Assembly (NCBI GenBank): GCA_951406725.2
Contig: OX597817.1
Coordinates: 55,614,001-55,678,000 of the forward strand
Source: Octopus vulgaris
Lineage: Eukaryota
Reading direction: 5' to 3'
Length of the DNA: 64,000 nt
Position numbers and translations under genes: made by a program. The notes below the pieces were generated by a model, which saw only the letters and a list, made by a program, of their open reading frames with translations, did not search any database and had not been told where the DNA came from. Position 1 is the stretch's first letter, and every line of letters begins with the position of its first letter. This document shows positions 3,783 through 48,932 of the stretch, piece by piece.

Positions 3783-3894
<112 letters not shown>

Positions 3895-4421: not shown

Positions 4422-4961
4422 AGGGGGCCAGTCGATTAGATCGATCCCAGTACGTAACTTGTACTTAATTAATTGACCCCGAAAGGATGAAGAGAAAAGT
4501 CGACCTCTGCGGAATTTGAACTCAGATCATAAAGACAGACGAAATACCTATTTCTTTACTACCCACAAGGGGCTAAACACAGACTGGAAAAACAAGGACA
4601 GACAAACGGATTAAGTCGATTACATCGACCCACAGTGCGTAACTGGTACTTAGTTTATCGACCTCGAAAGGTTGAAAGGTAAAGTCGACCCGGCGGAATT
4701 TGAACTCAGAACGCAGCGGCAGACGAAATACCTATTTCTTTATTACCCACAAGGGGCTAAACACAAAGCGGACAAACAAGGACAGACATAGGTATTAAGT
4801 CGATTACATCGACCCCAGTGCGTAACTGGTACTTAATTTATCGACCCCGAAAGAATGAAAGGTAAAGTCGACCCGGCGGAATTTGAACTCAGAACGCAGC
4901 GGCAGACGAAATACCGGTAAGCATTTCGCCCGGCGTGTAACATATCTGCCGGCTCGTCACC
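4422..4961 (-). mobile_element. SINE family A head-to-tail trimer (one head, three bodies, period about 184 bp)
   Basis: B box GGAATTTGAACTC occurs three times. Junction GAAATACCTATTTC at 4541-4554 and 4725-4738. Confidence 0.85.
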
Positions 4962-45636: not shown

Positions 45637-45830
45637 AGTCTGTGTCTGTGTTTCTCCTTCACCGCTTGAGAATATGTACTGGTGTGTTTATGTACTCGTA
45701 ACCTAGCGGTTCGGCATAAGGCACCAATAGAATAATTAGAAACTGGGTGTCAACTAATTCGGCTGATAAGTCTTCAAGGCCACGCCCCAGTCTAATCACT
45801 GAAACAACTACAAGGTAAAAGATAAAAATA
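45395..45830 (+). mobile_element. SINE family B, diverged
   Basis: GCACCTTGGGAA, GACCAAAGCCTCGTGAGTGGATT, internal (GT)n, AGCGGTTCGGCA, decayed tail. Confidence 0.65.
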
Positions 45831-46306
45831 TGCAAAGGAAAAGAAAATTCGAGAAACTATAATAAAAAGTCCGGAGGGGGAGCACTAAGGAGTGACGAGT
45901 GAAATTACAATGTTATTATCAGTTCGAATATGCTTGATGCAGGATCGAACTGGGGAATAACCTAGTCACTGCGCATTGTCTCAGAAAATATATCACGTTT
46001 GTTGTCAAATGGTGTGTATGCTCATAGATCAGCTCGCAGCGCCATCTACGTTTACTGTGAGATGCTAGCATTTCGGAGTAGTTGTCCCCTTATCGGTCAC
46101 ACACCCACTAAGTAGTCGGTACTGCGAGCTGAATTAAGGGATTACTTCCAGTTCGAACGTGCACCAATCATATTCGGACTCATTATAACATTGCAGTTTC
46201 ACTTATCACTGCTTAGCGCTGCTCCTCCGTAATTTACTTATGATGGACCACAGCATAGCGCTGGCAGTCATCCTAGGGTGACTGGCAGTGTCTTCTGCTT
46301 AGTGTC

Positions 46307-46353
46307 TGTGACCGAAGAGGGAGGTAACTACTCCGAAATGCTAGCATCTCACA
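46307..46353 (+). ncRNA. Type I hammerhead motif, U4C variant
   Basis: TGTGA-CCGAAGA-G-GGAG-GTAACTA-CTCC-GAAATGCTAGCATC-TCACA. Stem I TGTGA/TCACA, stem II GGAG/CTCC, palindromic stem III ATGCTAGCAT, AUC cleavage triplet. Confidence 0.7.
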
Positions 46354-46636
46354 ATCGGAGAGATCAGCTCCCAGCGCCATCTACCTAGGATGGGAGATGC
46401 TAACATTTCAGAGTAGTTTTCTCCCTTTCGGTAACAGACATTAAACAGACGACACTACGAGCTGAATGAAGAGATTACCCCTCTTATACAATTTTACTTA
46501 TCACTGTTTAGCGCTCTCCCTCCGTTATTTACTTATGTTGAACCACCGCATAGCGCTGCCGGTCATCATACAGTGACTGGAAAAGCATGAGAGAGGTAAT
46601 CTCTTTATTCAGCCGGCAACGTCGTCTGCTTAGTCT

Positions 46637-46685
46637 CTGTGACCGAAGAGGGAGATAACTACTCCGAAATGCTGGCATCTCACGG
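46637..46685 (+). ncRNA. Type I hammerhead motif, U4C variant
   Basis: CTGTGA-CCGAAGA-G-GGAG-ATAACTA-CTCC-GAAATGCTGGCATC-TCACGG. Confidence 0.7.
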
Positions 46686-47466
46686 TCCAGGTAGATGGCG
46701 CTGCGAGCTGATCTAGTTGTATACACACCATTTGTCAACAAGCGAGATATATTCTCCGTGACAAAACGCAGTGAGTAGCTTGTTCCCCAGTTCGAACCTG
46801 CATCAAGCATATTCGAACTGATAATAATATTTTAATATATAGTAATGCTTTTATCGTGTTGCTGTTCTTGAGATATCGTGAAGGTTTCGAGTACGTTCAT
46901 CGGTACGTCAGATAATGAAGAAATGAATTTTGTGTCAAATAATTGGAATTAATGTTTGAATGTCAATAATATTGAAGGAATAACTACCTATGACACAGCA
47001 CCCGCATACACGCATGCTCCCATATGTGTGTGTGTGTGCATATGTGCGTGGGTGTCTGTCACTTTCCTTTTTTTTTCTTGCCTTTTCTCCTTTTTTTTTG
47101 TGAGTTGCTGTCCTTCCTCTTGCCCCGTTGATGGGGAAAGAATTTGTGTTGCAGAATAAAACGGCAGAGTATAATTAGGAACGACAGACAGGTTTGAGAA
47201 ATAGATAAGTGTAAGATAGACACAGAGTGGAAGACAGCAAATTGTGAGAAAAATTCAGTGATGTGTGAAAGATCTAAGTATAGAGGTGTTGAGACATTCG
47301 AAAATTAAGAGGAATTGGAGTGGCAGAATCTCAGGGCCACATTTGAATACTGACACACACACACATATGCACGTCTATATACAAACAAATATGCATACAC
47401 ACACACAAAAACATACATACATACATACAAATATATATATAAGTATATGTATATGTATATATATAT

Positions 47467-48548: not shown

Positions 48549-48932
48549 TTGCGGTATTTCGTCTGCCGCTACGTTCGGAGTTCAAATTCCGCCGAGGTCG
48601 ACTTTGCCTTTCATCCTTTCAGAGTCGATTAAATAAGTACCAGTTACGCACTGGGGTCGATATAATCGACTTAATCCGTTTGTCTGTCCTTGTTTGTCCT
48701 CTCTGTGTTTAGCCCCTTCTGGGTAGTAAAGAAATAGGTATTTCGTCTGTCGTTACGTTCTGAGTTCAAATTCCACCGAGGTCGACTTTGACTTTCATCC
48801 TTTCGGAGTCGATTAAATAAGTACCAGTTACGCACTGGGGTCGATATAATCGACTTAATCCGTTTGTCTGTCCTTGTTTCTCCTCTCTGTGTTGTGTTTA
48901 GTCCCTTGTGGATAGTAAAGAAATCGGTATTT
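48549..48932 (+). mobile_element. SINE family A headless head-to-tail dimer
   Basis: Two bodies joined by GAAATAGGTATTTC (48731-48744). The array begins and ends with CGGTATTT. Confidence 0.85.

Follow-up and report, generated by a model that had tools for sequence, protein, structure and literature searches.

The stretch between positions 45866 and 46836 of the window (the whole 64,000-nt stretch of Octopus vulgaris DNA analyzed here) is best explained as an old five-piece cluster of what is likely a non-autonomous, retrozyme-like Penelope-type element (PLE), copied in trans by a PLE RT-endonuclease and likely inert at this locus; we put the probability of this reading at roughly 0.78. Judged from its sequence, the region is made up of five pieces of one dispersed, non-coding unit of ~343 nt that carries a single type I hammerhead. 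The ~1-kb stretch is an old compound cluster of jumbled unit pieces and not a designed bidirectional array.

Layout of the locus

Self-comparison of the window bore out the nested inverted modules described in an earlier note on this DNA and placed the direct and inverted copies at 45866-46836. The reference for the unit (U) is the one complete, ~343-nt non-coding copy on the plus strand at 46489-46831. At the left edge, a minus-strand tail (45866-45906) repeats the opening ~40 nt of the unit (U1-41) after a unit end, and the self-comparison together with tails elsewhere identifies it as a PLE-type 3' tail. It is followed by an inverted 5'-truncated unit (U105-343; 45904-46148, minus strand) with 83% identity to the full unit, and then by a unit end (U299-343; 46148-46192, plus strand) that runs head-to-tail into the start of the next unit, forming a partial tandem. 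That next unit (U1-195; 46194-46352, plus strand) has an internal deletion of ~35 nt and stops 4 nt beyond the predicted cleavage site, a position that led us to reject the idea that the template was switched where a ribozyme had cut. Between it and the complete unit lies an inverted piece (U99-226; 46361-46487, minus strand) that is antisense to both plus-strand hammerheads. Two head-to-head inversion junctions, in which an inverted 5'-truncated piece sits at the 5' end, are therefore present in the window. The junctions at 46148, 46352-46361, and 46488 are each spanned by contigs of a sequencing run that is labelled as another organism, indicating that the arrangement is real and not an artefact of the assembly (2.8 Gb in 227 contigs, rich in microsatellites).

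The list of open reading frames between 40 and 53 kb, read by eye, holds nothing gene-like within or near the element; the unit contains no RT/GIY-YIG ORF, and a tblastn search with a 781-aa PLE protein returned zero matches in the 64-kb window. The locus is likely to be ordinary PLE-type debris and inert. Elsewhere in the window, 184-bp tandem units of one interspersed repeat lie on opposite strands at 4430-4915 (2.6 copies) and 48553-48932 (2.0 copies). Within the unit, the terminal hairpin (window 46788-46820) includes the word GTTCGAAC, which we take to resemble a Pol III B-box; the hairpin and this word are retained in the oldest subfamily too.

The dispersed family and the fold of its unit

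Genome searches found the family dispersed genome-wide, each search scoring 40 of 512-768 first-look candidates, a depth at which a young source or a long tandem array may be missed. A 21-nt motif gave 107 exact matches genome-wide against 0 for the control. Among 114 family loci fetched, 95 were distinct and 93 matched U. A tail of 24-50 nt (median 41) extends beyond the unit end at 19 of these 93 loci, at least two hammerhead pieces are present at 29, a head-to-head inversion at 34, and at least five pieces at nine; the four-motif foldback, which the earlier note had treated as the functional unit, is on these counts a compound of five pieces of a recurrent kind. Another four-hammerhead locus (L100, 1130-1709) has three same-strand truncated pieces ~164 nt apart. 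Four sequencing runs, all in the form of assembled contigs, were compared at 80% likeness. Three of them, guessed to be RNA, contain pieces of family relatives, and none of the joints listed (64 more lie beyond the listing) falls at the predicted sites; as contigs cannot show ends or circles, this weighs neither for nor against cleavage.

Among 44 long unit starts, 33 have the end of the unit itself upstream, seven an inverted piece, three unique flank, and one another same-strand piece; at these starts, and in the loci examined, no copy runs into an ORF or coding sequence. At the family loci, tblastn with the 781-aa PLE protein found matches only at separate neighbouring insertions. One PLE remnant, 80 bp from a unit (L014), was considered as a coding body and rejected, because it lies downstream across a (TA)n tract as a separate insertion. 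Comparison of U with 30 GIY-YIG loci and the two intact PLE families described below gave short chance-level matches only (150 of 6136 GIY-YIG candidates scored). The survey of genome copies for which the earlier note had called upheld a PLE-like arrangement; at the loci sampled it found no link to an RT/GIY-YIG ORF, and the copies indicate that C4 is inherited and not protected.

The family-majority unit is predicted to fold as a ~30-bp rod with the hammerhead at its tip, with z-scores of -9.2 for the plus strand and -4.2 for the minus strand; in the isolated unit, stem II has a predicted probability of 0.93 and stem I of 0.36. Covariation among copies, proposed earlier as a test of the stems, was found: 20 of 38 pairs show two-sided changes, and the score of 0.26 compares with 0.07-0.11 for slid controls and was matched in 0 of 500 shuffles, in a set of 28 copies chosen across subfamilies whose changes are inherited by subfamily and hence represent few events. 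Two-sided changes affect five of six pairs in stem I and two of five in stem III, those between subfamilies being compensatory, while stem II is 99% paired. Together with the strong fold of one strand only, this covariation indicates that selection on RNA structure acted on the source elements, and on one strand. The suggestion of release from either strand finds no support, given that asymmetry and the broken cores of both minus-strand motifs.

Being non-coding, ~343 nt long, self-paired, and furnished with one type I hammerhead, the unit falls within the 170-400-nt range of retrozyme monomers. Its monomer size, one-strand self-pairing, and rod-tip hammerhead fit the metazoan retrozymes of that range (PMC7229834), subfamilies differ in stems I and III by compensatory changes, and clean two-unit tandems exist at two loci (L016 and L029), all of which would suit a live non-LTR retrozyme whose clean tandems elsewhere still yield a ~343-nt circle by U4C dimer cleavage, with the present locus as a product. 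However, the hammerheads read at these two loci carry G5A, no array in the 93 loci goes beyond two full units, near-identical copies are absent among the candidates scored except for one duplicated locus, and the core with stems I and II is intact in only 15 of 66 pieces. We therefore consider a live retrozyme quite unlikely. A solo pseudo-LTR (pLTR) of an autonomous PLE, its coding body lost or unsampled, is very unlikely. Most PLE insertions are 5'-truncated (PMC8557442), a relationship between animal retrozymes and pLTRs has been described (bioRxiv 10.64898/2026.07.22.740005), and the ultimate origin of the unit from a pLTR is likely; yet 0 of the 44 unit starts continue into shared coding sequence, against the 33 that continue into their own unit end, and the oldest subfamily already forms self-tandems of 343-348 nt (L125, L127, L129).

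Hammerhead motifs and the U4C core

The four hammerhead-shaped motifs on alternating strands reported in the earlier note are present, each with CCGA in place of CUGA (U4C). The plus-strand motifs at 46306-46354 and 46637-46685 are type I and, as had been claimed, structurally complete, with core CCGAAGA, an extra G after A9, stem II GGAG/CTCC, GAAA, stem III AUGCU(A/G)GCAU, stem I of 5 and 6 bp, respectively, and AUC sites at which cleavage is predicted after 46348 and 46679. The distance between these sites is 331 nt, correcting the 332 nt first given. On the minus strand, the motif at 46056-46102 (core CCGATAA, at 46096) has a broken C3-G8 pair and lacks the extra G, and that at 46393-46437 (core CCGAAAG, at 46431) is degraded, with lesions in stems I and II; both are predicted to be dead. 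The canonical core CUGANGA/GAAA/UH is thus departed from through U4C in all four motifs and through further lesions in both on the minus strand. Rfam returned 0 matches at gathering score over the whole 64-kb window, and the closer comparison at E<=10 over 45800-46900 gave six sub-threshold matches, the strongest of them to miRNA-precursor models on the foldback stems and not one to a hammerhead family. The four isolated motifs (61-63 nt) folded without signal (z +0.12 to -1.13). With Rfam silent, the hammerhead call rests on the core, the stem pattern, and the covariation among copies, and the assignment to a non-coding retroelement whose type I hammerheads are of Penelope type and dimer style stands, with a family monomer of ~340 nt.

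The earlier note had further proposed that an RNA of ~330 nt could be released. The 331-nt interval is a chimera that includes an antisense arm, not a monomer, and its likeness in length is coincidental. In an equilibrium prediction for the transcript 46300-46690, the plus motifs are base-paired with the inverted arm, each of the four hammerhead stems has P<=0.01, and a fold in which the two ribozymes are forced to form is 53 kcal/mol less favorable; both plus ribozymes are predicted to be sequestered by this antisense arm. That the foldback array is itself functional, releasing an RNA of ~330 nt between its plus-strand U4C hammerheads and originally from either strand, is highly improbable, for although the plus motifs are complete and unusually well preserved, their stem III halves could still cross-pair with one wobble, and the right-hand foldback module was copied once, the intervening sequence is chimeric and predicted to sequester both motifs, both minus cores are broken, and the five-piece order is repeated at none of the other mapped loci.

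The extra-G hammerhead occurs at exactly four places, two in the window and two at a locus 1.1 Mb away (L002). Window positions 46361-46831 are collinear with this locus (L002 1455-2088) at 87% identity across an inversion junction that is the same as that at window 46488, and the flanks are unrelated, indicating that the foldback module itself was copied once; a segmental duplication linking the two loci was rejected, as the flanks do not continue. The two hammerheads of L002 are identical (0 of 49 differences), while the rest of its arms differs at 25 of 197 positions. Private changes number 3 of 194 in the four extra-G hammerheads versus 52 of 897 in their flanks (p=0.006, for a set chosen post hoc); when all six pieces at the window and L002 are taken, the preservation contrast has p=0.053, and adjacent 49-nt windows are almost equally conserved (6 differences in the hammerheads versus 8-14). 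Gene conversion between the arms, or chance, may lie behind this preservation.

The presence of CCGA in all four window motifs despite their divergence elsewhere is weak evidence for selection, since C4 is the majority state of the family (51 of 65 copies, with T4 in 11) and four of four would carry C4 by chance with an expectation of 38%, or the full CCGA with one of about 5%. G5 is found in 49 of 65 copies and A5 in 15, from a set of 66 pieces. C4 has changed in 22% and G5 in 25%, compared with a mean of 22.7% over 40 CpG positions and 9.0% elsewhere; loss at the ordinary CpG rate indicates that C4 was inherited from the source element and that copies decay neutrally, contrary to the idea that selection conserves C4 in the genomic copies. 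Mean identity to the family majority is 89.6% (66 pieces), that is, ~10% divergence, and among the candidates scored no other copy matches the most majority-like one over full length at more than 90%. Across the 23 pieces that the hammerhead query did not find again, divergence is 10.4% in the hammerhead versus 10.9% in the rest.

Cores were tallied by eye from 100 listed rows for each of three sets of matches (107, 1,589, and 12,258). For the 21-nt motif, the 100 of 107 matches listed comprised 35 CCGA, 43 CTGA, 19 CCAA, and 3 CTAA, the excess of CTGA stemming from older subfamilies. One of these has a canonical CUGA core, ATGCATGCAT as its stem III, and a stem I that differs but is compensated; TG is found in 13 of its 15 loci, a count biased by the choice of loci for CTGA. 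An unrooted tree built from 130 segments places the C4 types, except L161, in a clade of 100 rows (support 97/81), and from branch lengths and the canonical state we infer that the change ran from U4 to C4.

The same core change is seen outside the family. A young autonomous PLE, unrelated to U, has a 4,271-bp tandem unit with repeats 99-100% identical (L096, L173, L174) and encodes a 775-aa RT + GIY-YIG ORF preceded by a 454-aa ORF without a Pfam match. Its hammerhead (L096, ~3800-3850) has the U4C core CCGAAGA and a U-U at 10.1-11.1, and among 1,589 matches to its motif, CCGA is present in 98 of the 100 listed. A third family (L111-L122, L077) lies in (TA)n tracts as pieces of ~250 bp that bear a minimal hammerhead; it has 12,258 exact matches, the 100 listed having cores CCGA (73), CTGA (24), and CCAA (3). 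Another intact PLE family (L091, L092, L095), with a 781-aa RT + GIY-YIG ORF and an upstream ORF of ~330 aa, carries a hammerhead with the known U3-A8 covariant core. None of these three families shares sequence with U beyond chance-level matches. Potential partners for the unit exist in the two intact RT + GIY-YIG families, and a U4C core is present in two unrelated families of the same genome besides that of the window, one of them young and autonomous.

One tentative and rather doubtful extension is that U4C is a working variant, probably dimeric and protein-assisted, that was fixed independently in at least three PLE lineages including a young autonomous element and that surveys for CUGA would miss; the family of the window would then have gone on acquiring structure-preserving changes after U4C, and its extra-G copies may remain under RNA selection. 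Our search of the literature found no report of U4C in PLE hammerheads, though Lunse et al. (2016) and Arkhipova et al. (2017) may contain one, and its novelty in PLEs is not established; nor did the literature on octopus Penelope elements and hammerheads yield a description of this element.

Proposed origin and comparison with known systems

Partial tandems, tail, 5' inversions, and the lack of an ORF together make a non-autonomous, retrozyme-like PLE the most likely source of the cluster, and by analogy with such architecture we infer mobilisation by a PLE RT-endonuclease. A source copy would have been transcribed from the unit's plus strand, and a PLE protein would have nicked AT-rich DNA and begun reverse transcription at an internal site of the RNA, giving rise to the tail. 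On a tandem or circular template, the RT would pass one unit and so create joins between unit end and unit start, after which an inverted truncated piece would be added at the 5' end. At the present locus, two such insertions may have fused, or template switches may have taken place onto an already compound RNA of the L002 type. A single fixation of U4C in a later source lineage would account for its presence in all copies descended from that lineage. Any cleavage by the hammerhead would be slow, dimeric, possibly protein-assisted, and likely dispensable for insertion; in PLE insertion in vitro, hammerhead cleavage is dispensable and cleavage is protein-assisted (PMC11167929).

What can be transferred from this locus to other systems is the core change, not the foldback array. 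The role of PLE hammerheads has yet to be settled (PMC8557442; PMC11167929), and this genome offers natural U4/C4 pairs within one family together with a young autonomous PLE fixed for C4, through which it could be asked whether cleavage matters for spread. Should C4 prove active, whole families escape any motif search that requires CUGA; should it prove dead, the young element would constitute in vivo proof of a successful PLE without a working hammerhead.

The candidate undescribed system of the earlier note belongs to a type of element already described (PMC8557442; PMC4209133; bioRxiv 10.64898/2026.07.22.740005). Partial tandems, inversions, and a 30-40-bp tail characterize PLEs and non-autonomous PLEs (PMC8557442), and pairs of minimal hammerheads on opposite strands 100-700 bp apart have been reported (PMC4209133). 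The locus shares with non-autonomous PLEs and PLE pLTRs its partial tandems, inverted 5'-truncated piece, and short tail, as well as a hammerhead within the repeat and an AT-rich, microsatellite context (Craig et al., 2021, PMC8557442; Frangieh et al., 2024, PMC11167929); it differs from them, as described there, in that no coding body was found for the unit, which has no match to the sampled autonomous PLEs, and in its U4C core. With the animal non-LTR retrozymes it has in common a ~340-nt non-coding, self-paired monomer, one type I hammerhead, and a relationship to PLEs (Cervera and de la Pena, 2020, PMC7229834; Li et al., bioRxiv 10.64898/2026.07.22.740005). Unlike the retrozymes of these accounts, the family consists of dispersed monomers and partial dimers with inversions and not of tandem arrays. 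A retrozyme would be expected to have two or more successive units, head to tail, each with its hammerhead complete, whereas in the window an inverted arm separates the plus motifs; the locus has the architecture of a non-autonomous PLE and lacks the clean dimer of a retrozyme.

The hammerheads themselves resemble those of PLEs with a small palindromic helix III in their type I fold, palindromic dimer-suited stem III, optional extra base after A9, and G10.1-C11.1 (Cervera and de la Pena, 2014, PMC4209133). In contrast to the motifs in that source, the stem III palindrome of the unit is 10 nt long, only two loci have the extra base, and C4 is a subfamily state, whereas C4 occurs in 0 of the 56 motifs of its Fig. 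S3, where the consensus is CUGANGAH. The identical core change is known from a viroid U4C variant, in which activity in vitro was considerably lowered and infectivity kept (cited in Perreault et al., 2011, PMC3088659); there it is a rare variant, whereas here several genomic repeat lineages have it as their majority state.
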